From NCBI RefSeq assembly GCF_902785355.1, contig NZ_CACZYF010000002.1: DNA of 64,000 nt; one strand, given 5' to 3'. This stretch comes from an uncultured Ruminococcus sp. (GTDB lineage Bacteria; Bacillota; Clostridia; Oscillospirales; Acutalibacteraceae). The translations under genes and the position numbers were made by a program. Every line of letters begins with the position of its first letter. Within the stretch, counting starts at the first letter, position 1. Positions 41,999 through 61,539 of this stretch are shown here, piece by piece. The notes beneath the pieces were generated by a model. That model did no database searches and had not been told where the DNA came from. It was given only the letters and a program-made list of their open reading frames with translations.

Positions 41999-42075
41999 GG
42001 GCCACTAGCTCAGTTGGTTAGAGCAACCGGCTCATAACCGGTCGGTCCGGGGTTCGAGTCCCTGATGGCCCACCA
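41999..42075 (+). tRNA. tRNA with anticodon CAT (elongator Met or lysidine-modified Ile2), with encoded CCA
   Basis: 77-nt cloverleaf read by hand. Acceptor GGGCCAc/aTGGCCC, D arm GCTC/GAGC, anticodon stem ACCGG/CCGGT with loop CTCATAA, T arm CGGGG-TTCGAGT-CCCTG, then ACCA. Confidence 0.9.
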
Positions 42076-42918: not shown

Positions 42919-44028
42919 ATGAAAGTAAAATCTGTTTTATCTTTATCACTCTGTATGGCGATGATGATGTCCGTATCCGTCAAAGCAGAAAGTCGAATGC
43001 TCGGTGATGTCGACGGTGACGGCGAGATCAGTATTACCGACGCAACGATTATCCAGCGATACACGGTCGGTATCAAGACGCCTGTCGCTGTTACTTCTTC
43101 TGTTGCCGACATTGACGGCGATCACACCGTGACCGTGATGGATGCTTCACACCTGCAACGCTGGATGGTGAATGTATCAGATAGCTGTCCGATCTCGAAG
43201 CCTATCTATGAACCGTCGCCGACTGATCGGTATGTTACGGTCGAGGGCGTCACCTTCGATTTGAAGAAAGTTCCTTCGGAAATCACTCTTACAGATAAAA
43301 GCATTACCTTGATGCTCTTGCCTAAGAGTGAGATCGATCCCCACGATATCACGACAGTGGTCAATAACGGTCAATACATTAATCAGATTGACTACACTGA
43401 CAGCCGTTTCAAGGAGAGTTACCTGATCGAAAAGGAGAACGGAATCCTTCACGGTTATGACTGCGAAGTGACCGACAGAGAGGATAATCCTCTGGCTTAC
43501 GTCTACGCTCACTACAGGAGCGGGCTGTGCTTTCCTTTTCAGACGACAATCAGCTGTATCGGAGAAGCGCACGGAATCTTTCCGATCGAGCTGTATTACA
43601 AGGGCAAGTTGATACGACGAGTGACTGTCAAGGTCGACGTCAACCGTACTCCCGAGGTTATCGAAAAGACGTTGAACATCGTTCGGTCGGCTGAGAAAGC
43701 CTGTTGGACTTCGTCCATGACCGACAGAGAAAAGATGAAAGCCTTTGCCGAATACATTCGGGATCACTATACATATGACCAAATCATGTGCGTTGAGGGA
43801 GCGGTTTTGACCGCCTTTGCCGCCAGAGATCTGGGACTTGAATCCATGCTTCTCTATCCGGGCGGTGAAGCAACCCAGCACTGTGACCGCCATATCGTTA
43901 CATATAATCTGTATGCAAATACAGCCGTTCCGGGCGGACACTGCGCTTGCCTGGTCAAGTATGATAACTGCACCATGCGCTATGATGTGCAGGGTGAGCT
44001 GTGTATTATCAAGGAATATGCACGCTGA
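42919..44028 (+). CDS. Secreted dockerin-domain protein with a possible transglutaminase-like cysteine peptidase C-terminal domain
   Basis: Signal peptide MKVKSVLSLSLCMAMMMSVSVKA. Two dockerin Ca-binding repeats (GDVDGDGEISITDATIIQRY and ADIDGDHTVTVMDASHLQRW). C-terminal Cys...His...Asp pattern (MCVEGAV...GGHCACL...RYDV). Confidence 0.8.
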   Translation: MKVKSVLSLSLCMAMMMSVSVKAESRMLGDVDGDGEISITDATIIQRYTVGIKTPVAVTSSVADIDGDHTVTVMDASHLQRWMVNVSDSCPISKPIYEPSPTDRYVTVEGVTFDLKKVPSEITLTDKSITLMLLPKSEIDPHDITTVVNNGQYINQIDYTDSRFKESYLIEKENGILHGYDCEVTDREDNPLAYVYAHYRSGLCFPFQTTISCIGEAHGIFPIELYYKGKLIRRVTVKVDVNRTPEVIEKTLNIVRSAEKACWTSSMTDREKMKAFAEYIRDHYTYDQIMCVEGAVLTAFAARDLGLESMLLYPGGEATQHCDRHIVTYNLYANTAVPGGHCACLVKYDNCTMRYDVQGELCIIKEYAR

Positions 44029-45138: not shown

Positions 45139-48100
45139 TCATTTTATCGAATCCATAATATTCAACAAACTCTGGTAACTATCCACATCGTGATATCTGA
45201 CCTCACTTGTCGAGATATTGTTGAACAGCTTCTTGGCGCATTTGATCTTCGCCTGCTCAATCGGTCTGAGACTCAGGCTCTCCATGGTGCCCTTTGTCTC
45301 GGCGACAAAGTAGATATGTTTGACGGTGCCCTCATAAAACGCAATCGCCCAGTCGGGAGAATAGTTGCCAACCGGCGTCGGGATATGGAAGCCCTTCGGG
45401 AGCTTTGCGTAGACACATACTTCATCCGCAGTATCCAGATCCTCGGCAAATCGGCGCTCGATACTCTGCTCGGCGCTACCGTCGGTGAACACATAATCCT
45501 GAACCGCTTTATTCGCCTTAAACGCCTGATCTATGGGACGGGAATTCTTCTCAGCAGTAAAGATTCCGCTGTCATACTCGCCATCAATCTGATTGTACGA
45601 GATATGCTCTACGATTGCAGTCGCCTTCTGCTCATTGATCAAGCGGCTGATCTTGGTGATGAATTCCTCGGGGTTGTTGCGGAACATACTGAGCTTCTGT
45701 TCGGAGATGCCTTTCAAAATCCGTACAACCGTCCTTCGGGTTAGCTTCGTCTGTTCGGCAATCTTACCTACCAGATCATATTTGACAGCGCTCTTTTCAC
45801 GATGTTTCAATACTTTTGTTTTGGTATGTTCTCTGCTGAAAGAATCCCCGCGATCAACCTCGTGCCGTTCCATATCATCCTTCTGTGAACCGACGGTCGC
45901 TGTATATTGCAACTCTGCGACAACCAGCTTGTCATTGATATGGATGACCGCGTTGCGCACCAGTTCATCGCTGTCGAAGTCGACCGTATAAGCGTACTTG
46001 CGGTTAATCTGCTTCCAGAGCGTCTGGAACTCTTTCTTATAGAAATTATCGTTCAGCGGATTATCCTTGACCTTTGTCTCGCTGCCATCGACAAACATAC
46101 GCTCCAGCACACTGTCATCATAGATCGCCTGAATCAGACCGTGGATGCCTTCTGCCATACTCTCCATCCCATTGGGTAATTCAGCAAGAGTACCCATCTG
46201 CGCGTCCATGCGGTATTTATCGGTGACTTTGCGCTGCATATCGACATATCCATTAAATATCAGGTAGAACTCGATATTGTTTGCCATATCGTCGGTAATC
46301 AGCGTCGGCACGCCGTCCATCTTGACATACTTGCCCTTGAAGTACTCGGAGGTTGCTGTCTCGGGACGATCATACAGCTCCGCCTTGATATCCTTCTGCA
46401 GATCGCCGATGAAGGACTTGTAGCTCTCGCTGGCTATGACGGTCAGCATATTGATGTCATGCACCTGATCGCCGACACTCTCCACATCAATGCGGCTGCC
46501 GTTACGATCGACGCACAAGCGCAGTCCGCGTCCAACCTCCTGCCGCTTGGCAGTATTACTGTCGGAATGTTTCAAGGTACAGATCTGGAACACATTGGGA
46601 TTATCCCATCCTTCGCGCAAGGCAGAATGGGAAAAGATAAATCGTGTCGGCTCCTCAAAGCTGAGGAGTCTTTCTTTATTTTTCAGAATCAGATCGTAAG
46701 CGGAAATATCATCGGAGAATTCACTCCCGCGTTTGAGCTTACTATCAACCGCATGACCCTTTTTATCGATGCTGAAATAGCCCTTATGCACCTTGCTCGG
46801 ATCACTGCATTTCTCGCGCAGATATTTCTGGTACGGAGTCTGCTCCAAGCCGATGTAATCATTGAAAACACTATTATACTCTTCTTCAAATATCTTGCCG
46901 TACTCGCCGAGCTGTTCTTCCCCGTTCTCATCATAGAGGCGGTACTTCGCGACCTCGTCGATGAAGAACAGCGACAGACACTTGATGCCGCGGTTAAAGA
47001 GCTGCTCCTCTTTCTCAAAGTGCGAGAGGATCGTCTCGCGAATCTGAATGCGGCGCATATCCTTTTCGGATACGTCGCCGACCACATTACCCGTGCTGAT
47101 CACTTCGCCGTTAGTGAAGGTTACTGTATGGTTGATCGGATTGATCTCGGATACGACAAAGCCCTTATACTGCTCCATCTCTTTGGAAAGGAAGAACAGA
47201 TCGTCACCCACGCCGACAGTGCGCGACTCACGGTTGATCGACTTGTTATAACCGATCTCCATCTCGATTTTTGCCATCGGAGGCTTGTTCTTCGACAGAA
47301 TGATCTGTTCCAAATACAGATACTTGTCCGTGCCGCGGAAGTTCTTGACCTCAAAGCCCTTGACCTCGATCTTCTTGACCAGACGCTTATTGAACGCATC
47401 CAGCGCGTCAAGCACATAGACAAGGTTATGCTGTGTTTTATGAGTTGCGGAATAATTCAGAGAAAACAGAGGGTTAAAGTTCTTCAACGCCTTCTGTGTG
47501 ACCTCACCGCCCATCTTCTGTGGCTCGTCCAGAATCAGGATCGGACGGTTCGCCTTGATGACGTCAATTGGACGACGGGAGCCGAACTCGTCACGCTTGC
47601 TGTAGATGATACGGCTCTCCTTATTCCTCGCACCTTCCTTGAGCGAGGACGCAAACGCCTGCGTATTGATGATCATGACATTCAGCCCCGAGTTACCGGA
47701 GAAGGAGTCGAGCTGATTGAGGTTCGAGCTGTTGTAGATGAAGAATCGCGCTTTCTTGCCGTAATGCTCCATGAAGTGATCCTCCATGGTCTCGAACGAC
47801 TTTTTCACGCCCTCGCGGATCGCGATACTCGGCACGACGACAATGAACTTCGTCCAGCCGTAACGCTTGTTCAGCTCGAACATCGTCTTGATATAGACAT
47901 AGGTCTTGCCGGTACCGGTCTCCATCTCGACGTCCAGACTGCACCGTCCCAGATCGCCCACCAACGCGGATGACGTCTTGATATTGTTCTCCTGCTGGAT
48001 ACGGCGGATATTCGCGAGCAGCTGATCATCGGAAAGGCTGATACGCTCATTCTTATAGCCGATATCATATATGTAGTTGTCATCAAACTCATCGCCGTCG

Positions 48101-48246
48101 AGCGTCGCCTGAATGTTCTCGAACTTCTTAGAGCCGAGGTCACGAGTGTACCGCGTACCGGTATCCATCCCCTGACCGCTGAAAACATTCACAACCGCCT
48201 CCACCGCGTCAGTCTGATACTGTTGGATTTTGAATTTGAAATTCAT
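45139..48246 (-). CDS. res: Type III restriction enzyme Res subunit (helicase plus PD-(D/E)xK endonuclease)
   Basis: Contains METGTGKTYVY (motif I), LILDEPQKMGG (motif II), and a C-terminal nuclease motif SPDWAIAF...YFVAETKG. Start set at MNFKFKIQQYQ, after AAGGTGA. Confidence 0.9.
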   Translation of the reverse strand: MNFKFKIQQYQTDAVEAVVNVFSGQGMDTGTRYTRDLGSKKFENIQATLDGDEFDDNYIYDIGYKNERISLSDDQLLANIRRIQQENNIKTSSALVGDLGRCSLDVEMETGTGKTYVYIKTMFELNKRYGWTKFIVVVPSIAIREGVKKSFETMEDHFMEHYGKKARFFIYNSSNLNQLDSFSGNSGLNVMIINTQAFASSLKEGARNKESRIIYSKRDEFGSRRPIDVIKANRPILILDEPQKMGGEVTQKALKNFNPLFSLNYSATHKTQHNLVYVLDALDAFNKRLVKKIEVKGFEVKNFRGTDKYLYLEQIILSKNKPPMAKIEMEIGYNKSINRESRTVGVGDDLFFLSKEMEQYKGFVVSEINPINHTVTFTNGEVISTGNVVGDVSEKDMRRIQIRETILSHFEKEEQLFNRGIKCLSLFFIDEVAKYRLYDENGEEQLGEYGKIFEEEYNSVFNDYIGLEQTPYQKYLREKCSDPSKVHKGYFSIDKKGHAVDSKLKRGSEFSDDISAYDLILKNKERLLSFEEPTRFIFSHSALREGWDNPNVFQICTLKHSDSNTAKRQEVGRGLRLCVDRNGSRIDVESVGDQVHDINMLTVIASESYKSFIGDLQKDIKAELYDRPETATSEYFKGKYVKMDGVPTLITDDMANNIEFYLIFNGYVDMQRKVTDKYRMDAQMGTLAELPNGMESMAEGIHGLIQAIYDDSVLERMFVDGSETKVKDNPLNDNFYKKEFQTLWKQINRKYAYTVDFDSDELVRNAVIHINDKLVVAELQYTATVGSQKDDMERHEVDRGDSFSREHTKTKVLKHREKSAVKYDLVGKIAEQTKLTRRTVVRILKGISEQKLSMFRNNPEEFITKISRLINEQKATAIVEHISYNQIDGEYDSGIFTAEKNSRPIDQAFKANKAVQDYVFTDGSAEQSIERRFAEDLDTADEVCVYAKLPKGFHIPTPVGNYSPDWAIAFYEGTVKHIYFVAETKGTMESLSLRPIEQAKIKCAKKLFNNISTSEVRYHDVDSYQSLLNIMDSIK

Positions 48247-48269
48247 AGGATCACCTTGCATTTGCTTTG

Positions 48270-48782
48270 TTACTTAGCTATATTGTTATCTTGAAGCTTT
48301 ATTCTTTTTCTAATATCATTAACCAGTTTACGATTTTGTTCTATTTGAATGTCTTTATTTGATCTCCATGCAAACAATCCGTTTGATAATCCGATAAGGT
48401 TCTTGCTGGTCTCTAACAAGTCATTTTTTGAAGGGATTCCTATATGAATAAACGGCATTATCTCAATAAATCCCTGCAATTCAGAAGCTATGTCACGTAA
48501 TTCATTAGATGCTTTATCCAACTCATCTCTATTGGCTTTATCAACCTTAAGAGCAGGATCAGAATAATAACGTGCTTGATATGTAAGGTGATAAGCTATT
48601 TTTTGTTTAATCTCCCTATACTTCTGTAAAGGAGTAATCCAAAGAGTGAACAAAATTTGCCCTAGAATAAATACTATAACACCGCTAAGCAACGTAATGC
48701 CAAAGGTTATCCATGGACTTGAATTTGCGTTATTCACTGTTATCTCCAATGGGGTAGCTATTTCATCAAAAGTTGCACTCAT
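48270..48782 (-). CDS. Small membrane protein (N-terminal TM hairpin plus helical domain), function unknown
   Basis: 170 aa. TM region WITFGITLLSGVIVFILGQILFTLWI. GGAGA RBS. Visibly more AT-rich than res and mod. Confidence 0.6.
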   Translation of the reverse strand: MSATFDEIATPLEITVNNANSSPWITFGITLLSGVIVFILGQILFTLWITPLQKYREIKQKIAYHLTYQARYYSDPALKVDKANRDELDKASNELRDIASELQGFIEIMPFIHIGIPSKNDLLETSKNLIGLSNGLFAWRSNKDIQIEQNRKLVNDIRKRIKLQDNNIAK

Positions 48783-48799
48783 GTTTATTCTCCAACGCC

Positions 48800-49600
48800 T
48801 TAGTAGTTGCCATGCTCCATTAATGTTTTTGCGTAGTCATAGAGATTATCATAATGAAGCAACGCAATATCTTTGTCTTTCAAGAATTCTCTACGTATCC
48901 TGTATGTTTTATCTGTAAAATCCGACCTTCTACCCGCAACAACCACATAATGAAAGCGTGTAGAATCAAACGTATACATTTCATCCGGCAACTGTTCATT
49001 TGTATATTTTTTTAAATCATTTGTAATTGAACTGAAACCAAATTCTAAATATCGCTGCCACTCTTTAATCTGTTTAATACCATCTCTGAATGCTTTTCCC
49101 AGTTCTCCGTCCTCAATTGTTATATTTGAATTGGGGTGTTCAAACTCTACCAGCACAAAACTATATCCATCAGATGATCTGCCAATCAATAAATAATCGG
49201 CTCTATAGTCGTTTCCTATTGGAAACTCTCTGAATAAAAAAGCATCATGATGTCCGAAGCTAAATAACGTAAATATTGATGCAGGTATCATATAATACTG
49301 TTTTTCCTTAATAAAACGTAGTATTTTTGCTTCATTTAAATCATTCGTACAGAGCAAGTCCTTATACTCATTACAAATATCGCTTATCCTCTGCTTATCT
49401 CTTAGCTCAACAGGATCAAGATAATTATTAGGGAATAAACTCATATTATGCCTAACTGCACTTGGATAACTTGTATAGGGACTTGGATGAAACATTCTTT
49501 CAACATGATACTCTTTATCCAATCTTTCTTTTTCATCAATCTCATCTTGAAATAACGAAGAATAATCCCTATCATATATTCCGAGTTTTATTGAACCCAT
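48800..49600 (-). CDS. PD-(D/E)xK nuclease-fold protein resembling DUF4263 (the Shedu SduA domain)
   Basis: 266 aa. The segment NEAKILRFIKEKQYYM...IGNDYRADYLLIGRSSDGYSFVLVEFEHP...QIKEWQRYLE recalls the DUF4263 pattern (E..F...D-[FY]-L...hhhhE-x-K). The usual Lys position reads E-F-E-H. AT-rich. Confidence 0.45.
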   Translation of the reverse strand: MGSIKLGIYDRDYSSLFQDEIDEKERLDKEYHVERMFHPSPYTSYPSAVRHNMSLFPNNYLDPVELRDKQRISDICNEYKDLLCTNDLNEAKILRFIKEKQYYMIPASIFTLFSFGHHDAFLFREFPIGNDYRADYLLIGRSSDGYSFVLVEFEHPNSNITIEDGELGKAFRDGIKQIKEWQRYLEFGFSSITNDLKKYTNEQLPDEMYTFDSTRFHYVVVAGRRSDFTDKTYRIRREFLKDKDIALLHYDNLYDYAKTLMEHGNY

Positions 49601-49601
49601 T

Positions 49602-51638
49602 TTATATCACCTTTCTAACTGTATCAGGACTATATGTAGCGAAGATTTGGTCGAAGTTGGTGGCGACGGAGTCGTTCTTCATGGAGCTGTCGCGCATGAC
49701 GAAGTAGGCGGGCTGGAGCTTGGCGACAGCGGTGATGGTCTCGTCGCTGACGTTCTCGTCAAAGCAGGCGATCAGGAAGTTGTCCGCTACGTTAAAGACC
49801 TTCTTGCCGGCGATGGTGCTCTCTTCGATCTTGCTCGACAGGAGCACGCCGAGGTCGAGCATCACCTGGAAGAGCAGATCCTCGGGGGTGCGATCCTCTT
49901 TGATATTGCTCTCGAGGTCGTCGAGGATCGACATCTGGACGTCGTGGGGATTGTAGTAAACGTCCTTCATGTTGGTAGAATCGAGCTTCAAAACGCGGAA
50001 GCCGATATCGAGTTTGGAGTTTGGAGATTGGAATGTGGAGCTATTTGTTTTCTCAACTCCACTCTCCACACTCAACACTCCACTCTCTTCCGTGATCTTT
50101 TTACCGGCTCGGCGAATACGCTCCTTGCCGATTTCGCAGATGTTTTTGTATCCGGCTTTATATGCCTCTTTCTTTTCATCACATAGTTCAGGGAGTTGAA
50201 CCATAATAAACTTACGATTGCCGCCGTCCGAAGCATTAAGATACATAACTGCATGAGCAGTTGTTGCAGAGCCAGAGAAGAAATCTAAACAATAATAATC
50301 ATTTCCAACAATAGATTGTGCAAGCTTTCCTATTAAGCGGCTTGGCTTTGAAAAATCAAACAAATACTGTTGACCCAGTAGCTTGTGCAATTCATCATTC
50401 GCATCTTCATTTGTTCCCCAACCACCGTTGTTTAAATTGTAATCATACGTAAACTCAGAAAGAGATTCTCCGTCAGCACCGATCCTTTGAAGCAAATCCT
50501 TTAGCATTTTAACGCGTTTTTCATTTACTATTCTACGGACATAATTATCCTGCGTAATATAAAGCAATCCTTCAGCAGAATAATTGTCAAGAGCTTTTTG
50601 TGAATAAATCCAGTTACTATCAACCCTTACGTCACGAACCAATACCCCATCAACTACTTCTAAATCATCAAGGTATATTAATTCCATGTTACCAGAACTG
50701 ATTCTTGTCCCCGCTGATATAGTGTAATCTTTCTCTTTATACTTGCTAGGGGTTCCTTTCTTTATTGTTCTTATTCCTCTTGCGTTAGTGGTTTTTATGC
50801 ATGGATACGTTTCTTGATCTGTATTCACCTCTCCAACTAATCCCTCAAAACAATTGTTTGATTTGCAAAAGACTAAAACATATTCTTTCATGTTAATATA
50901 GTGTTTGCTTAGAAAAGCTCCTTTTTTCTTTTTCTCCCACACTAACTGCGCTACAAAGCTTTTACTGCCAAATACTTCGTCACAAATTTTCTTTAGATTC
51001 TCAGCCTCATAGTCATTAATGCTTATGAAAATCACGCCATCATCAGACAACAAATCACGGGCAATCTTCAAACGCGGATAGAGCATATTCAGCCAGTCGG
51101 TATGGAAGCGACCGTTACTCTCGGTATTCTGGAACAAGTGGTTGCCATCATCGTCAATCTGACCGCTGTTTTCGATATACTCGTCGACACTCTCTTTGAA
51201 ATTATCATTATATACGAAGTCGCTCCCGGTATTATAGGGCGGGTCGATATAGATCATCTTGACTTTGCCGAGATAGGTCTCCTGCAGGAGCTTGAGGACG
51301 TCGAGGTTGTCGCCCTCGATATAGAGATTTTCAGTGTTATCAAAATCGACGCTCTCTTCGCGGCAGGGACGCAGCGTCTTACGGATCGGAGCATTCGCCG
51401 CGAGGATCGACTTCTTCTTATCCGGCCAAGTGAACTGATAGCGCTCGTCGCGCCCCTCTACCACCACAGCCGAAATCTCCTGCTGCAGCACATCCTTATC
51501 GATCGCGCGCTCGATGATCGCCTTTCCGTTCTCGTCATATCCCGTGATCGTCTCCGTCACCGCATTCGGAAACAAAGCCGCCAGCTTCTCATAATTCTCC
51601 TGAGTCCGATCCTTACTCTGCATCTTCATCTTGTCCAT
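49602..51638 (-). CDS. mod: Type III R-M Mod subunit (beta-class N6-adenine/N4-cytosine DNA methyltransferase)
   Basis: Contains IYIDPPYNTGSDF (motif IV) upstream of DFFSGSATTAHAV (motif I). 678 aa, with a strong AGGAGG RBS. Confidence 0.9.
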   Translation of the reverse strand: MDKMKMQSKDRTQENYEKLAALFPNAVTETITGYDENGKAIIERAIDKDVLQQEISAVVVEGRDERYQFTWPDKKKSILAANAPIRKTLRPCREESVDFDNTENLYIEGDNLDVLKLLQETYLGKVKMIYIDPPYNTGSDFVYNDNFKESVDEYIENSGQIDDDGNHLFQNTESNGRFHTDWLNMLYPRLKIARDLLSDDGVIFISINDYEAENLKKICDEVFGSKSFVAQLVWEKKKKGAFLSKHYINMKEYVLVFCKSNNCFEGLVGEVNTDQETYPCIKTTNARGIRTIKKGTPSKYKEKDYTISAGTRISSGNMELIYLDDLEVVDGVLVRDVRVDSNWIYSQKALDNYSAEGLLYITQDNYVRRIVNEKRVKMLKDLLQRIGADGESLSEFTYDYNLNNGGWGTNEDANDELHKLLGQQYLFDFSKPSRLIGKLAQSIVGNDYYCLDFFSGSATTAHAVMYLNASDGGNRKFIMVQLPELCDEKKEAYKAGYKNICEIGKERIRRAGKKITEESGVLSVESGVEKTNSSTFQSPNSKLDIGFRVLKLDSTNMKDVYYNPHDVQMSILDDLESNIKEDRTPEDLLFQVMLDLGVLLSSKIEESTIAGKKVFNVADNFLIACFDENVSDETITAVAKLQPAYFVMRDSSMKNDSVATNFDQIFATYSPDTVRKVI
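50010..50088. repeat. Heptad-armed hairpin lying in frame inside the mod coding sequence (copy i)
   Basis: GAGTTTG GAGTTTG GAGATTG GAATGTG GAG, loop ctatttgttttc, then TCAACTC CACTCTC CACACTC AACACTC CACTCTC. Confidence 0.7.
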
Positions 51639-52305
51639 TTTCTGCCTCCTGATTGTATGAAACTATATTAATTGCTCTGTCTAAAGTCTTTTTTTGATCT
51701 TCCAATAATTGATCAAATTCCAAGTTGTGCTTTTCTTCAGTTTGTACCATTGTATTAGTGAGTGATTCAGATAACAGTTCAGACACTAAAAAAGAAAGAA
51801 ATGCTGCCATAGTGAGGATATCTTGATTTGCAATTATTCTCGAATTAAAAGACTCATATGCAATAACCAAGAAAAAAGACAAAAAACCACAAGATATTAA
51901 AACGAAATCCATTGCCCTTTCAACTTTAATATACCTTTTCGCTTTATTAATACGTTTATTAAATTGAGAAATATATTTATCTCTAATTGAAACTACTTTT
52001 TCATATTCAGTTTCTGCGTGATAGCCCAAAATAGTTGCAGTTTTTTCTTGTAAATAGGATATCTCATTAAACCTTTTTTTATCGCTTTCTATTCTTTTCA
52101 TCATCTGCTCTTGAGCATTAATCATGGTACGCGACAGAGACGCTCCGGTAAACCAAAAAGTAGCAATCGTTGTTGCAGCCACAATTTTGTCCCAACCATC
52201 TATATTCCAGTTATACTTTTGAGATAATAAATGAACAATAAAGGAAACAAAAACGAATACAGTAAATGCAAGCATTAATGGGTTAAGGTAATAGTATTTC
52301 TTCAT
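51613..52305 (-). CDS. Four-TM membrane protein, function unknown
   Basis: 230 aa, with TM helices at about residues 8-27, 40-58, 133-150 and 165-182. Very AT-rich. The ATG abuts the DUF4391 stop (0-nt gap), and the 3' end overlaps the mod start by 26 nt. Confidence 0.6.
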   Translation of the reverse strand: MKKYYYLNPLMLAFTVFVFVSFIVHLLSQKYNWNIDGWDKIVAATTIATFWFTGASLSRTMINAQEQMMKRIESDKKRFNEISYLQEKTATILGYHAETEYEKVVSIRDKYISQFNKRINKAKRYIKVERAMDFVLISCGFLSFFLVIAYESFNSRIIANQDILTMAAFLSFLVSELLSESLTNTMVQTEEKHNLEFDQLLEDQKKTLDRAINIVSYNQEAENGQDEDAE

Positions 52306-52932
52306 TTATCTCATGTCCTTTAAACATATAATTTGCTGATGCAGTTCAAATTTCTTCTTCGGCTGGGCTTCGCGCTTAAGCTGTTTTTCCAGTCGTTCGA
52401 TCTCCCGTTCGAGCTTTTGCCGCTGTTCATACTCCAGTATAACATCTTTCAGCGGTTTGGAGAAGTCCTTTTGTATGCCGGAAACCTGATAGAACAATGC
52501 GGCGTAGATATCGTCGAGCGACAGTCCGTCTGCGCTCAGGTTCAGACTCTCACTCGGCGCAAAATCCGTATGATAGTAATTGCCGACCGAAAGTGACTCG
52601 GAGGAGGTCTTTTCTTTATAGGCGATCCAGAGCTGACTCTCCCCACCATATGTCAGGATGAAAAACGTATGATACGGGATACCGCGGTCGATCAGCCGCA
52701 GAATGCTGCTGTCAAAATTCTTGGTCGTCAGCTCGATCTCGAATATCTCGATCTCGTCAATCGTTTCACTCGTCGCAACACCGAGCGTATCCGCCGTCAG
52801 CTTATAGCGCCAGTAGATCGCGCTGATCTGATCGACGAATATCCGCTTGTTCGCAGCTGACACCGTCAGATTCTCATAAAAGCTCTTTTTCGGAACTTTT
52901 ACATTTACTATGGTTTTTGATGAAAACTCCAT
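52306..52932 (-). CDS. DUF4391-family protein
   Basis: 208 aa. The segment VPKKSFYENL...FVDQISAIYWRYKL...IEIFEIEL...LRLIDRGIPYHTFFIL matches my memory of the DUF4391 consensus. Needs an HMM check. Confidence 0.6.
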   Translation of the reverse strand: MEFSSKTIVNVKVPKKSFYENLTVSAANKRIFVDQISAIYWRYKLTADTLGVATSETIDEIEIFEIELTTKNFDSSILRLIDRGIPYHTFFILTYGGESQLWIAYKEKTSSESLSVGNYYHTDFAPSESLNLSADGLSLDDIYAALFYQVSGIQKDFSKPLKDVILEYEQRQKLEREIERLEKQLKREAQPKKKFELHQQIICLKDMR

Positions 52933-52939
52933 ATTTGCC

Positions 52940-53590
52940 TCATCCGTTAAAATCTTCTATTTCAATTAAAAAGCTATCAAAATACCTTCTTCTTTGCATT
53001 TCTATTTCTTCTTCTCTGAAGAAATCTTGCTCGAGTTCCAATTCGCGTTCCATTCTTCGTGCTGGACGCCACTCTGTGTGATAATGATTTCGCCATAGAG
53101 TGATGCGATCAACCAGATCCCGACAACAAACATCCGCAGATTGACTGTTGATGATAATGCTCTCAATATCACTCAGTGCTTTCTTTTCTTCTTCGTACTC
53201 TTTATCCAACCAAAAGTAAGAGGAACAGGCGTATTGTTTGATTGACATTCTGAAATTATTTTCGCGGTTAACAGCAGTAATAAATGCAGCTATTTTAGCG
53301 CGCTGTTCATATCTGACCAAAACCAGTACCTTATTCGGAATTGACGACGCAATTGCTTCAGCGATTCTTTGGAAAGTGTACTGTTTGTAGTAACAACCCA
53401 CGACCGCTTCGATGACTACCAGCTCTGAGTTGTTAGGATATCTAATTAGATACCGGATGATTACTTCGGATAGGTACTCCTTTAATAATCGAGATTCAGC
53501 AGCAGTCAGATTTGCCTTTTTGATAAATGTATCCGCGTCCAATCTTTTATTGACTCTTGACTTATCCAGAGCATAAAACAGGCGTTCCAT
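52940..53590 (-). CDS. Hypothetical protein, possible divergent DUF4391 paralogue
   Basis: About 216 aa. The block order resembles the neighbouring gene (VNKRLDADTF...LSEVIIRYLI...LVVIEAVV...IASSIPNKVLVLVRY). The start lies within 2 nt of the SNF2 stop. Confidence 0.4.
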   Translation of the reverse strand: MERLFYALDKSRVNKRLDADTFIKKANLTAAESRLLKEYLSEVIIRYLIRYPNNSELVVIEAVVGCYYKQYTFQRIAEAIASSIPNKVLVLVRYEQRAKIAAFITAVNRENNFRMSIKQYACSSYFWLDKEYEEEKKALSDIESIIINSQSADVCCRDLVDRITLWRNHYHTEWRPARRMERELELEQDFFREEEIEMQRRRYFDSFLIEIEDFNG

Positions 53591-53592
53591 GT

Positions 53593-56500
53593 TCACCTCA
53601 CCACTAAGAAGGTTATCAATTCAAAATCAGCTAAGCCTTTGAAACTATCGGAAAGCAGGGTTGTGCCGCCGGGCTTGAAAAGGCTGTTGATATCAGCGGT
53701 CTCTTTCACCTCGATGATGGAGCCGACTGCTTGCTTGAGGAGTTCGGAATAGGTCGACATATCTCTGCCGTCGTCGGTCTCGCGATTGAAGGCGCGGTAC
53801 AACTCGGGAATCGGCTCTGATTTACCGCGGCAGATATGACGCATACTGTCAAGCAACTTTTTCGGAGAGGCGTGGTTGCAGATCACTTCTCCGTCCATAC
53901 CGATATAGACCATGTAGAACGGATGGAGCTGGTTATGCTCGTCGATCTTTGCCTTATCGGTCGCTTTCAGCACATAGATCACACCCTTCGGCGCATCGTC
54001 GCCTGCATACGCTACAGCGTGCATACCATGCGGAGCGCTCTCGACGTCGGGATGCTCTTTCATGTATTCGAGAAGATCAAGTCGGAATTCGTTAAGCCCT
54101 AAATCCATGATAGAAATACCGGAGCTCATATCCTCGATATCGACGACCTCATCCTTGAGCTTCTGCAGCTGTGCCTTGCGGTATTCGAGGTCGGTTTTCT
54201 CCTCGTCACTGAGGATATTGTCATCACCGGTTGCCGTCATATCGACGATCTTCATGCGGGTCTCGATCTTCGATTTCAGATTGATGTATTCGTCAAGAGA
54301 GACGTTCGGCCAGAAGTTGACGAGCTGGATAACTGAATTGCGGCTGCCGATACGGTCGATACGTCCGAAACGCTGGATAATGCGCACGGGGTTCCAGTGG
54401 ATATCGTAATTGATCAGATAGTCGCAGTCCTGAAGGTTCTGACCCTCGCTGATGCAGTCGGTCGCAATCAGTACGTCGATGTCAGGCGCATTGGGATTAA
54501 GGCTGTCTCGATCCTTGGATATGGGTGAAAAGCTGGTGAGCACAGAGTTGAGATCTGTACTTTTCAGTTTTGCGGTTGTTCTGCCGTCAATCGATCCGGT
54601 CACCATAGCGGTATCAATGCCGAAGGTTTCTTTCATATATCGACTGACATGGGTGTAAAGGTATCCGGCTGTGTCGGCAAAGGCGGTGAAAATAATCACT
54701 TTACGATTGTCGGGATTGATCGGATTTTCAATTTTCCTTTTGAGGACTTCAAATAGCTTTTGCAGTTTGCTGTCATGCTCGGGAGTAATATCTTCTACCA
54801 TGCTAGTGAGGAGTTCGAGAACCTCCAGATCCTTTTCGAGATCGTGTTTCCATGACTCGTAATCCATATCGCCGAGCTGGATTTTGACTTTCTTTCCGAA
54901 AGAAAAGAGATCATCATTATCCTGATCCTCGGGATCGAAGTCGTCAACATCTGACATATCGGTCAAATCAAGCTGTACTGCATGATTCTCTTTATAGTAA
55001 TCGATTTTATCAAGGGTATTTTCTATCTGTTCCTTGATACGCTTGAGTGTCAAGGAGAAAGAGAAGATGGAGCTCTCCATACGCTTCATCAGATTGATAG
55101 CGTTCAAACGACGCAGACCAAGCTCACGGTTCTCCTGTGTGAAACCGATATTGATAGCGTTGTCTTTATACATTTCCGCGTACTTTTCTTTTTTGAACGG
55201 AAGGATATAATGAGACGGCAGATAGATATATAGCCCCAACATCATCAGCTGCTCGAAAATCTCATTGTAGGTGATGGCAGTTTTGAGATCAGTCAGCGGA
55301 GGATAAAGTGAAATCGGCGACAGACGAGTCGGGAAGGTTCCGATATCAGTTGTGTCATAGTATTTTTGGATATGCTTGCGCGAGCGTGCGATCGTAACGC
55401 TGTCAAGGACTTCAAAAAAGTCGTAATCGAGCATTTTGAGCAACACCTCTGTTGTACGCTTTTCGGGAGCAGATTTACTCCATGCGTTAAATGCTTTCTG
55501 TGCGTTTCGGAATATCTCGTCGATCGTTCGCTTGGTATCGAGTTGTGAATCGATCAACGCGGCATTGCCTTCATATGCCAATGCAAGCTGATTTTTAAGA
55601 TCATTGAAACGATTGTTGACGGGGGTCGCTGATAACATGAGGACCTTTGTCTTGACGCCTTTGCGGATGACATGATTCAGCAATTTGAGATAGCGGTTTT
55701 CTTTTTCATTATCTTCGCCTGAAAGCTGTCCACCGTTTCGGAAGTTATGGGATTCATCAATCACAACGAGATCATAGTTACCCCAGTTCAGACGGTTCAG
55801 CTCTATTCCGTTTGAGCTACCATGGGTTCTGCCGAGATCAGTATGGAATAACACATCATAGCGGAGCCTGTCCTCTGCAATCGGATTGTTGAGATAGTTG
55901 CCCTTGTAGGTGTTCCAGTTAGCTGATAGCTTCTTAGGGCACAGCACCAATACGGTTTTGTTGCGGTTTTCATAGTACTTGATAACGGATAGCGCAGTGA
56001 AGGTCTTACCGAGACCGACGCTGTCAGCAAGAATACAACCATTATACTTTTCCAGTTTGTTGATGATAGCGAGACACGCCTCACGCTGGAAATTATACAG
56101 CATGTTCCATATCTTGCTGTTTTTGAAGCCGGTCGCCTCATTCGGCAGAACATCCTCAGAGATATCCTCAAGGAATTCGTTAAACAGGTTATATAGGGTG
56201 ATAAAGTAAATGAATTCCGGCGGGTTCTCATTATAGGCTGCAGAGATGTTCTCGATCACCTCGTCAGTGACATCTTGCAAGCGTCGCTTATCATTCCAGA
56301 GTTGCTCAAAAAGCTGGAGATATAATTCGGATAGCGGAGATTCAACCTTATTAACATAGCTATATGCTTTGTTGCCTCGCTCACAGCCAAGGTCTACGGT
56401 AGTGAAGCCATCGATAGGCATATAGTTTTTGTCATCAAGATTGATGAAACCCGTCATCTTTTCGTTGGTGATATTAGATTTGAATTTAACCTTCTGTCGG

Positions 56501-56823
56501 ATCCAGTCAGCACATTCTTTGGCGATTGCTTTTTGGGTTAGCTCATTACGGAGCTTGATCTCGAATTCTGTTCCGTAAATACTACGCTCACGGTTCAGCC
56601 GAGGAATGTAAAACTCTCTTTTTTCTTTAGCAACCTTCTCAGTTGTAAATGTCGGAGAGGTAAAAATAAATCGCAGCTCATCAATACTCTCCAACTCCGC
56701 CTTCAACTCCTGAAAAGCGTAGATTGAAAAGCATGCAGCTGCGATCTGCATTTTACTTCCTGTATGAAGCTCTTTCGATAAATCGTCCTTGAGTGTTTTA
56801 TTTGTGTTGTAAATGATTTCCAT
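53593..56823 (-). CDS. SNF2/Rad54-family helicase with an unassigned N-terminal region of about 240 aa
   Basis: 1076 aa with the motifs ILADSVGLGKTFTAL (I), LVVIDESHNFRN (II), MLSATPVNN (III) and NPVRIIQRFGRIDRIGS (VI). Confidence 0.9.
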   Translation of the reverse strand: MEIIYNTNKTLKDDLSKELHTGSKMQIAAACFSIYAFQELKAELESIDELRFIFTSPTFTTEKVAKEKREFYIPRLNRERSIYGTEFEIKLRNELTQKAIAKECADWIRQKVKFKSNITNEKMTGFINLDDKNYMPIDGFTTVDLGCERGNKAYSYVNKVESPLSELYLQLFEQLWNDKRRLQDVTDEVIENISAAYNENPPEFIYFITLYNLFNEFLEDISEDVLPNEATGFKNSKIWNMLYNFQREACLAIINKLEKYNGCILADSVGLGKTFTALSVIKYYENRNKTVLVLCPKKLSANWNTYKGNYLNNPIAEDRLRYDVLFHTDLGRTHGSSNGIELNRLNWGNYDLVVIDESHNFRNGGQLSGEDNEKENRYLKLLNHVIRKGVKTKVLMLSATPVNNRFNDLKNQLALAYEGNAALIDSQLDTKRTIDEIFRNAQKAFNAWSKSAPEKRTTEVLLKMLDYDFFEVLDSVTIARSRKHIQKYYDTTDIGTFPTRLSPISLYPPLTDLKTAITYNEIFEQLMMLGLYIYLPSHYILPFKKEKYAEMYKDNAINIGFTQENRELGLRRLNAINLMKRMESSIFSFSLTLKRIKEQIENTLDKIDYYKENHAVQLDLTDMSDVDDFDPEDQDNDDLFSFGKKVKIQLGDMDYESWKHDLEKDLEVLELLTSMVEDITPEHDSKLQKLFEVLKRKIENPINPDNRKVIIFTAFADTAGYLYTHVSRYMKETFGIDTAMVTGSIDGRTTAKLKSTDLNSVLTSFSPISKDRDSLNPNAPDIDVLIATDCISEGQNLQDCDYLINYDIHWNPVRIIQRFGRIDRIGSRNSVIQLVNFWPNVSLDEYINLKSKIETRMKIVDMTATGDDNILSDEEKTDLEYRKAQLQKLKDEVVDIEDMSSGISIMDLGLNEFRLDLLEYMKEHPDVESAPHGMHAVAYAGDDAPKGVIYVLKATDKAKIDEHNQLHPFYMVYIGMDGEVICNHASPKKLLDSMRHICRGKSEPIPELYRAFNRETDDGRDMSTYSELLKQAVGSIIEVKETADINSLFKPGGTTLLSDSFKGLADFELITFLVVR

Positions 56824-56862
56824 GATTGACCTACCAACTTGGGATATAACAATACATAATAA

Positions 56863-56891
56863 ATCATACCACTAAATCCCACATTTTTCAA
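56863..56891 (-). promoter_or_regulatory. Promoter of the SNF2...res operon
   Basis: Minus strand reads TTGAAA-17 nt-TATGAT, about 40 nt upstream of the SNF2 ATG. Confidence 0.5.
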
Positions 56892-58667: not shown

Positions 58668-59354
58668 ATGAGTAAGTTAGTATTATATCACGGCAGTGAT
58701 CACATCGTAGGTCAGCCTATTTTCGGAAAGGGTAAGCCCGACAATGACTACGGCATGGGCTTCTACTGCACCGAATCTATCGAGCTTGCGAAAGAGTGGG
58801 CTTGCGGTGAGCGCGGTCAGGACGGCTATGCCAACGCTTATACCATCGACACCGACGGGCTGAACATACTGAACCTATCCGACGAAAAGTATAATATCCT
58901 GAACTGGCTGGCAATACTGATAAAGAACAGACGGTTCAGCACAACGGTCCCGATCGCTCAGGTCGCCAAACAGTATATCATTGAGAATTTCTCCGTCGAT
59001 ATTACGCCCTACGACATCATCATTGGCTATCGTGCGGATGACTCCTACTTCTCCTTTGCGAAGGACTTTATCAGCAACACGATCTCCCTTGAGCAGTTAT
59101 CCCGCGCGATGCGCCTGGGCAAACTTGACGAGCAGGTAGTGCTGAAATCGAAGAAGGCATTTGACACTGTTCAGTTTGACAGAGACAAATGCGAATACGC
59201 TGACAGCAGTATCTATTTTCCGTTGAGAGAGAAGAGAGACAGCGAAGCGAGAACACAGTATCTGAGCGTTGAACGCTACAACGATGTCGTGAATGGTTTG
59301 TTCATTCGGGACATCATGGGAAGGAACATGAAGAATGAAGACTTTAGCAGATAA
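58668..59354 (+). CDS. DUF3990-family protein
   Basis: MSKLVLYHGSDHIVGQPIFGKGKPDNDYGMGFYCTESIELAKEWA matches my memory of the DUF3990 N-terminal signature. Confidence 0.7.
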   Translation: MSKLVLYHGSDHIVGQPIFGKGKPDNDYGMGFYCTESIELAKEWACGERGQDGYANAYTIDTDGLNILNLSDEKYNILNWLAILIKNRRFSTTVPIAQVAKQYIIENFSVDITPYDIIIGYRADDSYFSFAKDFISNTISLEQLSRAMRLGKLDEQVVLKSKKAFDTVQFDRDKCEYADSSIYFPLREKRDSEARTQYLSVERYNDVVNGLFIRDIMGRNMKNEDFSR

Positions 59355-59958
59355 TTATTCTGATGAAAAGACGATCGACCTGGTCGCCGAGTGCTTTGAT
59401 TATGCAGTCAACTTCTGTAAAACAGACGGAGACGATTTTTGGAACTACCTTGTTATTTCGGGAATCGCTAAGCAGCTGGAGGACGGCAATCCGAAGTTCG
59501 TATTGGGACACTCCGCTGTAGAGATCGTGAACATGGTATTTGATAAACTAAACATCCCATCTGACAACACCGACTATGTTGCTTTTGAACGCTCACCCGA
59601 ATACTGGGCAGGCTGGGCATTGGCTCAGTATCAGATCAAGTCGGAGCAGTCTTACAAAAAGCTCCATTCGCTCGTTGGCTTTTCGGAGTTGATCGGAATG
59701 TACCAAACGCTGCATGAAGCGCCGATCGAGAAGTTCTTTGATAAGATGAACAAGCGAACGGCGAATCAACAAATCGGGTTGAAACGGCAAAGAGAGAGAA
59801 TGGGATTATCTCAATCAAGCCTGTCGAGAATCTCCGGCATCAGCCTGAAAACGATCCAAGCCTATGAGCAAGGGCAGAAGGATCTCAAGCGAGCGAAGCT
59901 CGAAACGCTGAACTTGTTTGCCGATATTCTGGCATGCAAGATCGAGGATCTGTTTTAG
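59335..59958 (+). CDS. Protein with a C-terminal XRE-type HTH domain, partner of the DUF3990 gene
   Basis: The C-terminus LKRQRERMGLSQSSLSRISGISLKTIQAYEQGQKDL is a classic Cro/C1 HTH. The gene overlaps the upstream gene by 20 nt. Confidence 0.7.
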   Translation: MKTLADNYSDEKTIDLVAECFDYAVNFCKTDGDDFWNYLVISGIAKQLEDGNPKFVLGHSAVEIVNMVFDKLNIPSDNTDYVAFERSPEYWAGWALAQYQIKSEQSYKKLHSLVGFSELIGMYQTLHEAPIEKFFDKMNKRTANQQIGLKRQRERMGLSQSSLSRISGISLKTIQAYEQGQKDLKRAKLETLNLFADILACKIEDLF

Positions 59959-60018: not shown

Positions 60019-61539
60019 ATGAATGGTGTAATTTATGCAAGGTATTCTTCCGATAATCAAAGGGAAGAAAGTATTGAGGGACAGCTGAGAGAATGTATGG
60101 CGTTTGCTGAGAAGAACGATATTCAAATCGTCGAGACGTACATCGACAGAGCGCTCTCCGCAAAGACAGATAATCGTCCAGCGTTTCAGCGAATGATTCG
60201 GGACAGCGCCAAAGAACAATTCGAGGTCATCATCGTATGGAAGCTTGACCGCTTCGCCCGAAATCGTTACGATTCCGCACACTATAAGGCGATCCTGAGA
60301 CGCAACAACGTGCGTGTGGTTTCCGCTACCGAGGCAATCTCGCAGGGTCCCGAAGGTATTATCCTTGAATCTCTTTTGGAAGGCATGGCGGAGTATTACT
60401 CAGCCGAGCTTGCTGAAAAGGTGCTCCGCGGAATGAATGAAAATGCTTACAAATGCAAATTCAACGGAGGTACGATCCCATACGGCTACTATGTAGATGA
60501 CGAACAGCATCTGCAGATCGAGCCTGAAACCGCTGCCATTGTCCGTGAAGTTTTCGAGCTTTATGACAGCGGGATGACAATGAAAGAAATCGTGACTACG
60601 CTCAACGGTAAAGGACTCCGCAACAGAAAAGGAAATCCATTCAAGATATCCGTTGTCTCCAAAATGCTGACCAATCGGCGATATATCGGTGAATACAAAT
60701 TCAGAGAGATCGTTATCGAGAACGGCATCCCTGCCATCATCTCAAAAGAGATGTTTGAATCCGTTAATAACAAACTAAGCGCAAACAGAAAAAAGCCAGC
60801 CCGAAAGAAATCAGGCGAGGAATATATTCTGACTACAAAGCTCTACTGCGGTAACTGTAAATCCTTCATGGTCGGCGAGAGCGGTACCAGCCGATGGGAT
60901 AAAACCTACCGCTACTACAAGTGCGTGTCTGCAAAGCGGAAAAGCGGCTGCGATAAGAAAGCTGTTCAGAAGGATCTGATCGAGGATCTGGTGATCGATC
61001 AAATCCAAAAGATCATCCGAGACGATTCCGCTATCAATTTGATCGCAGACAAAATCATCAAGACACAAGGCGAAGAGGATAACGGAATTCAACTTCTCAG
61101 GCGCCAGCTTGCTGAGGCTGAAACGAGTATCGAAAACCTGATGAAAGCGATCGAGATGGGAATCATCACCGAGACCACCAAAAACCGATTGATCAAGCTC
61201 GAGGATCGGAAAAAGGAACTCGAGGTCAGGCTGGCTTCGGAGACGATCAAAAAGCCTATCCTGACAAGGGAACAGATCATTTTCTGGCTTCAGCGATTCA
61301 GAACCTTCGATCCAAAGAATCCGAAGCACAGGAAAAACATGATCGACAGCTTTGTCAACGCGATAGTGCTGTACGATGACAAGATCATCTTCTACTTCAA
61401 CTATAAAGAGAACGCCGAAACCCTTTATCAGAAGGATTTGGAGGATTTTTCGGATTTATTCGTCTCTGCTCCACCACACCAATATAAATCAAACCCTTAT
61501 TTCTATGTCGGCGGTTTTGCTGTCACGGTTTGGTTTTAA
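60019..61539 (+). CDS. Large serine recombinase (resolvase domain, recombinase domain, zinc ribbon, coiled coil)
   Basis: Contains VIYARYSSDNQREESIEGQ (catalytic Ser), CGNCKSFM...YYKCVSAKRKSGC, and a C-terminal coiled coil. 506 aa. Confidence 0.9.
   Translation: MNGVIYARYSSDNQREESIEGQLRECMAFAEKNDIQIVETYIDRALSAKTDNRPAFQRMIRDSAKEQFEVIIVWKLDRFARNRYDSAHYKAILRRNNVRVVSATEAISQGPEGIILESLLEGMAEYYSAELAEKVLRGMNENAYKCKFNGGTIPYGYYVDDEQHLQIEPETAAIVREVFELYDSGMTMKEIVTTLNGKGLRNRKGNPFKISVVSKMLTNRRYIGEYKFREIVIENGIPAIISKEMFESVNNKLSANRKKPARKKSGEEYILTTKLYCGNCKSFMVGESGTSRWDKTYRYYKCVSAKRKSGCDKKAVQKDLIEDLVIDQIQKIIRDDSAINLIADKIIKTQGEEDNGIQLLRRQLAEAETSIENLMKAIEMGIITETTKNRLIKLEDRKKELEVRLASETIKKPILTREQIIFWLQRFRTFDPKNPKHRKNMIDSFVNAIVLYDDKIIFYFNYKENAETLYQKDLEDFSDLFVSAPPHQYKSNPYFYVGGFAVTVWF

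Follow-up and report, generated by a model that had tools for sequence, protein, structure and literature searches.

We analyzed a window of DNA of 64,000 nucleotides (nt) from an uncultured Ruminococcus sp. (contig NZ_CACZYF010000002.1), focusing on an operon of eight tightly packed minus-strand genes (56823-45139) that encodes a SNF2-family ATPase, two DUF4391 proteins, the Mod and Res subunits of a Type III restriction-modification (R-M) enzyme, a Shedu nuclease (SduA) and two transmembrane (TM) proteins. An earlier note on this sequence had described eight co-directional genes at the locus, and all eight open reading frames (ORFs) were recovered on the minus strand with the coordinates that it gave. 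Each of its domain calls was likewise recovered by Pfam or PADLOC models. The genes and their candidate promoter are listed below in gene order, with protein lengths in amino acids (aa).

56863..56891, minus strand: candidate sigma-70-type promoter, TTGAAA-17-TATGAT with a TG extension, about 40 nt 5' of the SNF2 start codon
53593..56823, minus strand: SNF2-family ATPase, core gene 1, 1076 aa (SNF2-rel_dom 2.1e-11, Helicase_C 3.9e-15)
52940..53596, minus strand: DUF4391-a, slot 0, extra divergent paralog, 218 aa (PF14335, 7e-10)
52306..52932, minus strand: DUF4391-b, core gene 2, 208 aa (PF14335, 7.7e-48)
51613..52305, minus strand: 4-TM protein, slot 1 cargo, 230 aa, 31% GC, two strong and two weaker hydrophobic segments by hydropathy scan
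49602..51638, minus strand: Type III Mod, core gene 3, 678 aa (N6_N4_Mtase, PF01555, 3.6e-28; PADLOC MTase_III 1.4e-208)
50307-50967, minus strand: variable target-recognition region of Mod, lacking nucleotide similarity to related operons although both its flanks are 82-91% identical to theirs
48800..49600, minus strand: SduA (Shedu nuclease), slot 2 cargo A, 266 aa, 33% GC (Pfam SduA_C 3.2e-16)
48270..48782, minus strand: 170-aa TM protein, slot 2 cargo B, 33.5% GC, one N-terminal TM segment by hydropathy scan
45139..48261, minus strand: Type III Res, core gene 4, 1040 aa, or 1035 aa from the second ATG (REase_III 8.8e-288)

The junctions between consecutive genes measure -4, +7, 0, -26, +1, +17 and +8 nt (negative values being overlaps). 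The last becomes +23 nt when Res is started at its second ATG, and it is with this start that the range reported earlier, from a 26-nt overlap to a 23-nt gap, is matched. No strong minus-strand terminator was found inside the operon in a scan of the region. The single promoter proposed for the operon could be located as the top-scoring promoter-like site of the region, with 10/12 positions matching. Promoter-like sites were no more common there than in shuffled sequence (23 observed versus 26 expected), so this promoter stands as plausible rather than proven. The AT-rich character noticed for three extra genes was borne out, the 4-TM, SduA and 170-aa TM genes having 31-33.5% GC versus 45-49% in SNF2, DUF4391-b, Mod and Res.

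The organization of the locus elsewhere was surveyed in 91 loci, derived from 80 species-representative genomes retrieved with a DUF4391 alignment, metagenome contigs carrying close relatives, annotated plasmids, and the window itself. The search used a narrower DUF4391 alignment, the first one being too diverse, and the 80 genome loci, mainly from Clostridia of gut and rumen, are those that best match one DUF4391 subfamily. Genes were called by a simple longest-ORF rule, and the ORFs were searched with the eight window proteins. SNF2 lay 5' of DUF4391 in 66/66 loci with sufficient flank, and 3' of DUF4391 we found Mod in 48 and Res in 47 of the 49 loci that could be evaluated. The invariant unit is thus made of four genes, SNF2, DUF4391, Mod and Res, and the association of SNF2 and DUF4391 with Mod and Res put forward in the earlier note is kept in other genomes. 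This core was found in three phyla (Bacillota, Pseudomonadota, Actinomycetota) and is carried by plasmids, by integrative elements, and by a phage-like element. The order SNF2-DUF4391-Mod-Res is annotated on plasmids of E. coli, Acinetobacter, Aeromonas, Mycolicibacterium, and Methylotuvimicrobium, and also, interrupted by insertion sequences, on a Sphingobium plasmid. It recurs in Erysipelothrix phage phi1605, where the gene at the DUF4391 position is labeled as a chemotaxis protein. Searching E. coli genomes and plasmids with the nucleotide sequence of the operon returned only short fragments of Mod or Res.

Some of these relatives have peculiarities of their own. The label of methyl-accepting chemotaxis protein on the phi1605 gene (locus L109, 6239-6952) is almost certainly wrong, and this gene went undetected with the window DUF4391 as query. 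On the Mycolicibacterium and Methylotuvimicrobium plasmids a small helix-turn-helix (HTH) gene of about 61-66 aa precedes the core and a large AAA-family ATPase gene follows it (5496-5681 and 14656-17247 in L101; 5484-5684 and 14875-16983 in L102); they may represent additional parts specific to these lineages, or a regulator. Directly 3' of Res in L004 (17506-20633), and also in L005 and L007, which are among the nearest relatives with a single DUF4391, lies a gene whose product exceeds 1040 aa and combines PLDc_2, ResIII, Helicase_C, and DUF3427 domains; it looks like another restriction-like gene stacked on the element.

Both subunits of the Type III enzyme have homologs of known structure. 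Mod is homologous to the Mod of EcoP15I (4ZCF chain A, 1.1e-54) and belongs to the beta class, with the motif IDPPYN (DPPY) and the FSGSA form of FxGxG. Res is homologous to the Res of EcoP15I (4ZCF chain C, 4.4e-70) and joins an SF2 ATPase to a C-terminal PD-(D/E)xK endonuclease with the residues SPDW ... AETKG (ResIII 1.8e-14, RE_endonuc 3.9e-30). It scored 380 bits against the NCBIfam equivalog PRK15483, under the cut-off of 564, and is therefore a relative of this family and not an equivalog. Type III enzymes carry their target-recognition domain in the center of Mod. Since this is the position of the non-conserved part of the window Mod, related operons probably differ in specificity. Two short imperfect 7-nt tandem arrays (GAGTTTG x4.4 and ACTCCAC x4.6) were also observed in mod at 50010-50087, within a stretch that makes this Mod some 50 aa longer than its close relatives (678 versus 619-631 aa). 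As 7 is not a multiple of three, a change in copy number would shift the reading frame, and phase variation would probably require longer and more regular arrays than these. An 18-nt inverted repeat (50346-50363 / 50854-50871, 83% complementary) roughly flanks the variable center and is probably due to chance.

SNF2 and DUF4391 could instead form a separate two-gene defense system that merely tends to adjoin Type III R-M genes in defense islands. Type III R-M functions as Mod and Res alone in P1 and EcoP15I, two-gene versions exist, and a Res of the two-gene type occurs in one of the four-gene loci. That locus is the phi1605 one, whose Res groups with two-gene enzymes in a crude neighbor-joining tree without bootstrap support. 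In the same tree, four-gene systems from three phyla have Res proteins that group in a single clade, with 49-53% identity to the window Res, and outside this clade fall the two-gene enzymes of phage P1 (28.6%), the E. coli chromosome (35%), and a Clostridioides phage (36.5%), the overall range for two-gene Res being 29-37%. The constancy of order, orientation, and adjacency in 66/66 and 47-48/49 loci across three phyla, together with stop and start codons that overlap or abut, also argues against independent systems. DUF4391 was not seen with another set of partners in the fetched loci. L056, the only downstream-evaluable locus that lacks both Mod and Res, has an upstream flank too short for SNF2 to be called. 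We give this explanation little credence.

The SNF2 protein has intact ATPase motifs (GLGKT and DESH) behind an N-terminal region of about 240 aa that is strongly conserved, with a mean column identity of 69% among 19 N-terminal domains from three phyla. The PADLOC model C3a139 'HKD+Snf2' covers the protein in full length (6.6e-126). An active HKD (phospholipase D) nuclease fused to SNF2, as in this name, is unlikely: Pfam PLDc gave no match in the protein, and no invariant or nearly invariant His was found among the 19 domains. The N-terminal domain likewise gave no match in a profile search of PDB sequences and no relation in a profile comparison with a PLDc_2 domain from a neighboring gene. 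The DrmA, DrmD, HmaA, BrxH, and ZorD models align only to the helicase lobes (HmaA at residues 577-837), and the DrmD equivalog reached 157 bits against a cut-off of 610.

For the second core protein, DUF4391-b, an AlphaFold2 model of high confidence (predicted local distance difference test score, pLDDT, 91.7) shows an alpha+beta N-terminal domain followed by a long C-terminal helical hairpin. On the hairpin sits a conserved motif with the consensus EKQPKKKFEL (EAQPKKKFEL in the window protein). A fold search with this model found no match in PDB or BFVD (best E-value 0.013, TM-score <=0.24). The family itself is large, its profile matching 3,412 clusters at 50% identity among 1.84 billion representatives. 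In the open-access literature we found DUF4391 in only two papers, neither on defense and one of them apparently using the name by a slip for DUF7941, and PF14335 in none. No open-access paper was found that describes the four-gene core or a role of DUF4391 in defense, in line with the earlier view that the SNF2 and DUF4391 pair is uncharacterized.

The other DUF4391 protein of the window behaves differently. DUF4391-a is 16% identical to DUF4391-b and occurs only in the window, in contigs with the window's own locus (L097, L098, L100), and in L008-L010. L004 and L094 share about 91% identity with the window in the flanks and lack exactly this gene, and another divergent DUF4391 copy ahead of the core copy was seen in five surveyed loci. 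The SNF2 plus tandem DUF4391 module proposed earlier thus holds for SNF2 and one DUF4391, whereas the first DUF4391 is absent where SNF2 is 91% identical in nucleotides.

Comparison of close relatives revealed that DUF4391-a, the 4-TM protein, SduA, and the 170-aa TM protein are variable inserts in a conserved frame. The cores of the window and of L004, L008, L011, and L094 are 82-92% identical in nucleotides, and this similarity comes in blocks: the promoter region, SNF2, DUF4391-b, about 670 nt at the start and about 700 nt at the end of Mod, and Res. DUF4391-a, slot 1, about 660 nt in the center of Mod, and slot 2 are without similarity. The gene order is SNF2, DUF4391, a 316-aa gene, Mod, a 297-aa gene, and Res in L004, and SNF2, two DUF4391, 600-aa and 210-aa genes, Mod, 336-aa and 269-aa genes, and Res in L008. 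The insertion hot spots are therefore the SNF2/DUF4391, DUF4391/Mod, and Mod/Res junctions, that is, slots 0, 1, and 2. The mosaic break points fall within about 25 nt of gene ends, and the NGQDEDAE tail common to four unrelated slot-1 genes is explained by reading frames that run on into the conserved start codon of Mod and its ribosome-binding site. No direct or inverted repeats were found flanking the slots, and an integron-like or shufflon-like mechanism was dropped for this reason. Given precise break points and the lack of repeats, homologous recombination in the conserved flanks would be the simplest mechanism of exchange.

Among 60 loci with a complete core, 53 had cargo in slot 1 and 44 in slot 2, and six had none in either. 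The 159 cargo ORFs fell into 78 protein clusters, and representatives of 61 of these were scanned against PADLOC and Pfam, where 274 PADLOC models were matched by at least one of them. The cargo families recognized were as follows.

YhcG/DUF1016 (PADLOC PDC-S02), 16 loci
RhuM, 9 loci
TIR, 7 loci
HEPN, Schlafen (SLFN)/AlbA_2, and AAA_13/PrrC-like
PARIS AriA/AriAB, Septu PtuA, and AbiLi
GmrSD (GmrSD_N), Abi_C, and HerA
Further PADLOC matches: PDC-S06 and mad3/8

The cargo genes thus lie between core genes in the same orientation, and differ among homologous loci. Many belong to known or candidate defense families, and many others match nothing. Proteins with hydrophobic segments made up 29/88 of the cargo in slot 1 and 7/54 in slot 2; as these counts are within the expectation for a proteome, we claim no enrichment of membrane proteins in slot 1. 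Ten more cluster representatives were scanned singly, of which eight had no PADLOC match, and seven of those eight were scanned with Pfam, none with a significant match. These eight clusters are candidates for new defense genes, and their representatives are listed below.

L045, 10642-11280
L005, 9216-10166
L020, 1070-2881
L004, 13455-14348
L036, 697-1383
L060, 1145-1549
L085, 13585-14553
L008, 11268-12077

Seven of the eight come from clusters present in at least two loci, and several have TM segments.

In the window's own cargo the known-defense match is SduA, and the two TM proteins have none. The 4-TM protein gave no Pfam match and only a weak PADLOC match to SLATT (0.0026). A single distant homolog (25% identity) was found for it among 5.8 billion proteins, and it occupies slot 1 of a related operon. 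SduA aligns over residues 8-266 to profile positions 3-268 of the PADLOC SduA model PDLC00386 (5.5e-100), and gave no match in a sequence search of PDB. Together with three homologs (37-42% identity) it has D...VE(F/L)E in place of the canonical D...ExK, and this conserved ExE variant is probably functional. The homologs occur in other defense contexts, among them a BREX-like locus and the neighborhood of a 2098-aa NACHT protein. As the relative in the former (L106, 6254-9016; 42% identity) directly follows brxA, the SduA subfamily is also nested in a BREX-like locus; this relative stands ahead of DUF4365 and Cap4-nuclease genes. For the 170-aa TM protein no Pfam or PADLOC match was obtained; its sequence is identical to that of a protein from an uncultured Ruminococcus. 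Two of its four homologs (49-58% identity) adjoin Schlafen/AlbA_2 genes, one of these 3' of a Type I HsdS, and none of the four lies beside SduA, which rules it out as a partner of Shedu. Since their homologs sit in different contexts, the 4-TM, SduA, and 170-aa genes are separate movable units and not one module.

These data bear on the possibility that the eight genes constitute one obligate machine, in which the membrane proteins and Shedu would be dedicated effectors triggered by the core complex. The single promoter and the very tight or overlapping junctions would suit such a machine, as would the presence of the sole distant 4-TM relative in the same slot of a related operon. There is also the precedent of PrrC, which is nested in a Type IC locus and activated upon inhibition of the host enzyme (PMC12707154). 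Set against this, operons with cores of about 90% identity have their corresponding slots occupied by unrelated genes, and cargo is missing altogether from six complete loci and from most of the plasmid examples. Homologs of SduA and of the 170-aa TM protein are found in unrelated contexts. In addition, SduA fits the full-length Shedu model, and Shedu is known as a single-gene system. We rejected the 4-TM, SduA, and TM proteins as fixed layers of one machine because they differ between near-identical operons, and regard an obligate eight-gene machine as improbable. The multi-layer, methylation-linked defense locus of the earlier note is largely upheld: SNF2 and DUF4391 are wired to a Type III enzyme and AT-rich genes are slotted in, the layers being interchangeable.

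A different kind of coupling would have SNF2-DUF4391 as a guard, sensing either the Type III enzyme or incoming DNA and signaling its state to whichever effectors occupy the slots. The scaffold would then be an 'effector socket', with DUF4391 as an adaptor of new fold linking SNF2 to Mod-Res. By analogy with the activation of PrrC by EcoprrI, nested genes such as the 4-TM protein might be switched on through the scaffold instead of working by themselves. Both the guard and this mode of activation strike us as unlikely.

The operon is located inside a low-GC island of about 20 kb, for which the following features were identified.

41999..42075, plus strand: tRNA-Met, island boundary, beside the housekeeping genes pyrC and carB
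60019..61539, plus strand: large serine recombinase (Resolvase, Recombinase, Zn_ribbon_recom), near the other end of the island
45022-44723, minus strand: possible ninth gene, DUF6809, 99 aa, 116 nt 3' of Res
44724-44691, minus strand: strongest intrinsic terminator of the region, 3' of the DUF6809 ORF

Being bounded by tRNA-Met, the likely integration site, and holding a large serine recombinase, the island is classified as an integrative element. The eight-gene locus, with the flanking dockerin, pyrC, and carB genes, was also present on 11 metagenome contigs. Because the strongest terminator sits 3' of DUF6809, the transcript may extend to this ninth gene; the ORF keeps its position in metagenome contigs with the identical locus and was not found 3' of Res in related operons. 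The low-GC stretch between tRNA-Met and the operon contains a gene for a 369-aa dockerin type I protein (42919-44028), which fits a cellulosome-bearing Ruminococcus host. At 58668-59958, overlapping DUF3990 (228 aa) and HTH (207 aa) genes lie on the strand opposite to the operon. They may be a further defense or toxin-antitoxin module, since DUF3990 was once seen as slot cargo elsewhere. No cas genes were found among the island ORFs scanned against Pfam.

Such a setting raises the question of whether the cassette mainly serves its mobile element, be it by addiction, by exclusion, or by epigenetic switching through the variable Mod, and not in phage defense of the host. Plasmids, integrative elements, or a phage-like element carry all the examples, and R-M systems can stabilize mobile elements. 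Swapping of the target-recognition region of Mod is also known from phase-variable regulons. Nevertheless, the slots hold anti-phage modules, and in place of the long simple-sequence tract of phase-variable genes the window Mod has only the two short imperfect 7-nt arrays. Service to the element and phage defense are, moreover, compatible roles. We consider it highly improbable that the former is the main function.

Taken together, these results make it likely that SNF2-DUF4391-Mod-Res is a four-gene R-M system with swappable cargo slots, carried here on an integrative element by tRNA-Met. Under this proposal, Mod, with a specificity set by its swappable central region, would methylate host sites, and Mod-Res would cleave unmethylated incoming DNA in the manner of EcoP15I. 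SNF2 and DUF4391 would form a complex that acts with Mod-Res on DNA, our best guess being a translocase or adaptor that helps to engage or license targets, comparable to the SNF2 components in DISARM, BREX type 3, and Hma. The nested genes would act as self-contained second-line defenses expressed from one shared promoter and inherited with the scaffold. Both this cargo and the Mod specificity would be exchanged through homologous recombination in the conserved flanking genes.

Several points weigh against this proposal. Restriction, methylation and its motif, protection, cargo recombination, and the co-transcription of the eight genes are predicted from sequence, and the role given to SNF2-DUF4391 is a guess by analogy. 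DUF4391 has no relative of known function by sequence or structure, and a single-sequence model of the SNF2 N-terminal domain reached a pLDDT of only 36. The grouping of the phi1605 Res with two-gene enzymes departs from a separate four-gene lineage. As the survey kept the best matches to one subfamily, the slot-occupancy figures apply to the sampled clostridial clade, and most of the proteobacterial and actinobacterial plasmid examples have empty slots. Some small cargo ORFs may also be spurious owing to the longest-ORF gene calling.

If the four-gene system is as proposed, a restriction system present in at least three phyla has two conserved components of no known role, and explaining them would show how a SNF2 motor is coupled to a Type III enzyme. 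The E. coli plasmid versions of the cassette make it directly testable. The 91 loci with their 78 cargo clusters would extend 'guilt by embedding' to a new host scaffold, and the unmatched cargo offers candidate defense genes from gut and rumen Clostridia, which are poorly covered by screens in E. coli. Finally, the exact break points, one of them at the Mod ribosome-binding site, provide a handle on the exchange of defense cassettes and of methylase specificity.

Among known systems, no PADLOC model set spans the operon, and only RM type III, Shedu, and an orphan SNF2 candidate are recognized, which agrees with the earlier opinion that its gene order is not that of any named system. Type III R-M enzymes hemimethylate an asymmetric site, and their ATP-dependent cleavage requires two inversely oriented unmodified sites. 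Like EcoP15I and EcoP1I, the window system has Mod followed by Res, both homologous, and a variable target-recognition region in Mod. Unlike them, it adds SNF2 and DUF4391 upstream, its Mod and Res form a separate lineage (28.6% identity between the window and P1 Res by alignment), and the adjacency of the two genes is broken, with two genes between Mod and Res in the window and cargo ahead of Mod. SduA resembles Shedu (DUF4263) in fitting the full-length model with its C-terminal SduA_C nuclease domain, and differs in being nested in another system and in having ExE, conserved in homologs, where ExK is expected. The SNF2 protein is of the same family as C3a139 'HKD+Snf2', a candidate Type III CRISPR-Cas accessory described from four neighborhoods, for which a link to DUF4391, Mod, and Res was not drawn (Shah et al. 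2018, PMC6546367). No mention of SNF2 is made in a 2025 review of restriction-modification (PMC12707154).

Class 1 DISARM (DrmD SNF2, DrmMI, DrmABC) likewise couples a SNF2 ATPase to an adenine methylase in a restriction-like system, but no gene of the operon matches DrmB or DrmC, and DrmA is absent, its model aligning to the SNF2 helicase lobes only. The BREX-related (BR) systems comprise a DUF499 AAA+ ATPase, an N6-methyltransferase, and a SNF2 helicase-nuclease fusion, with DUF3780 in Type-2 BR (PMC12839542). Hma and BR share with the window operon the combination of a SNF2 helicase, a methyltransferase, and a third NTPase. In Type-2 BR, too, the SNF2 core is preceded by an N-terminal domain and accompanied by a small separate protein of unknown fold (DUF3780), and the hma locus is likewise an insertion hot spot. 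In contrast, neither DUF499 nor DUF3780 was found in the operon with Pfam, there is no ATPase beyond SNF2 and Res, the methyltransferase is of the Type III Mod class, and the nuclease is on Res and not on the SNF2 protein.

A study of 'guilt by embedding' (bioRxiv 10.1101/2024.01.29.577857) describes nested defense genes in Hma, BREX, DISARM, and Type I R-M, and we found no description in the open-access literature of embedding in Type III R-M or in a SNF2-DUF4391-Mod-Res cassette. As in those systems, unrelated defense genes of the same orientation lie between the core genes of a methylation-based multi-gene system, and PDC-S02/YhcG, GmrSD, PARIS, Septu, and PrrC-like cargo is common to both. 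The scaffold here differs in being neither plain Type III R-M nor any of the four in that study, and in having three defined slots whose boundaries are the ends of genes.

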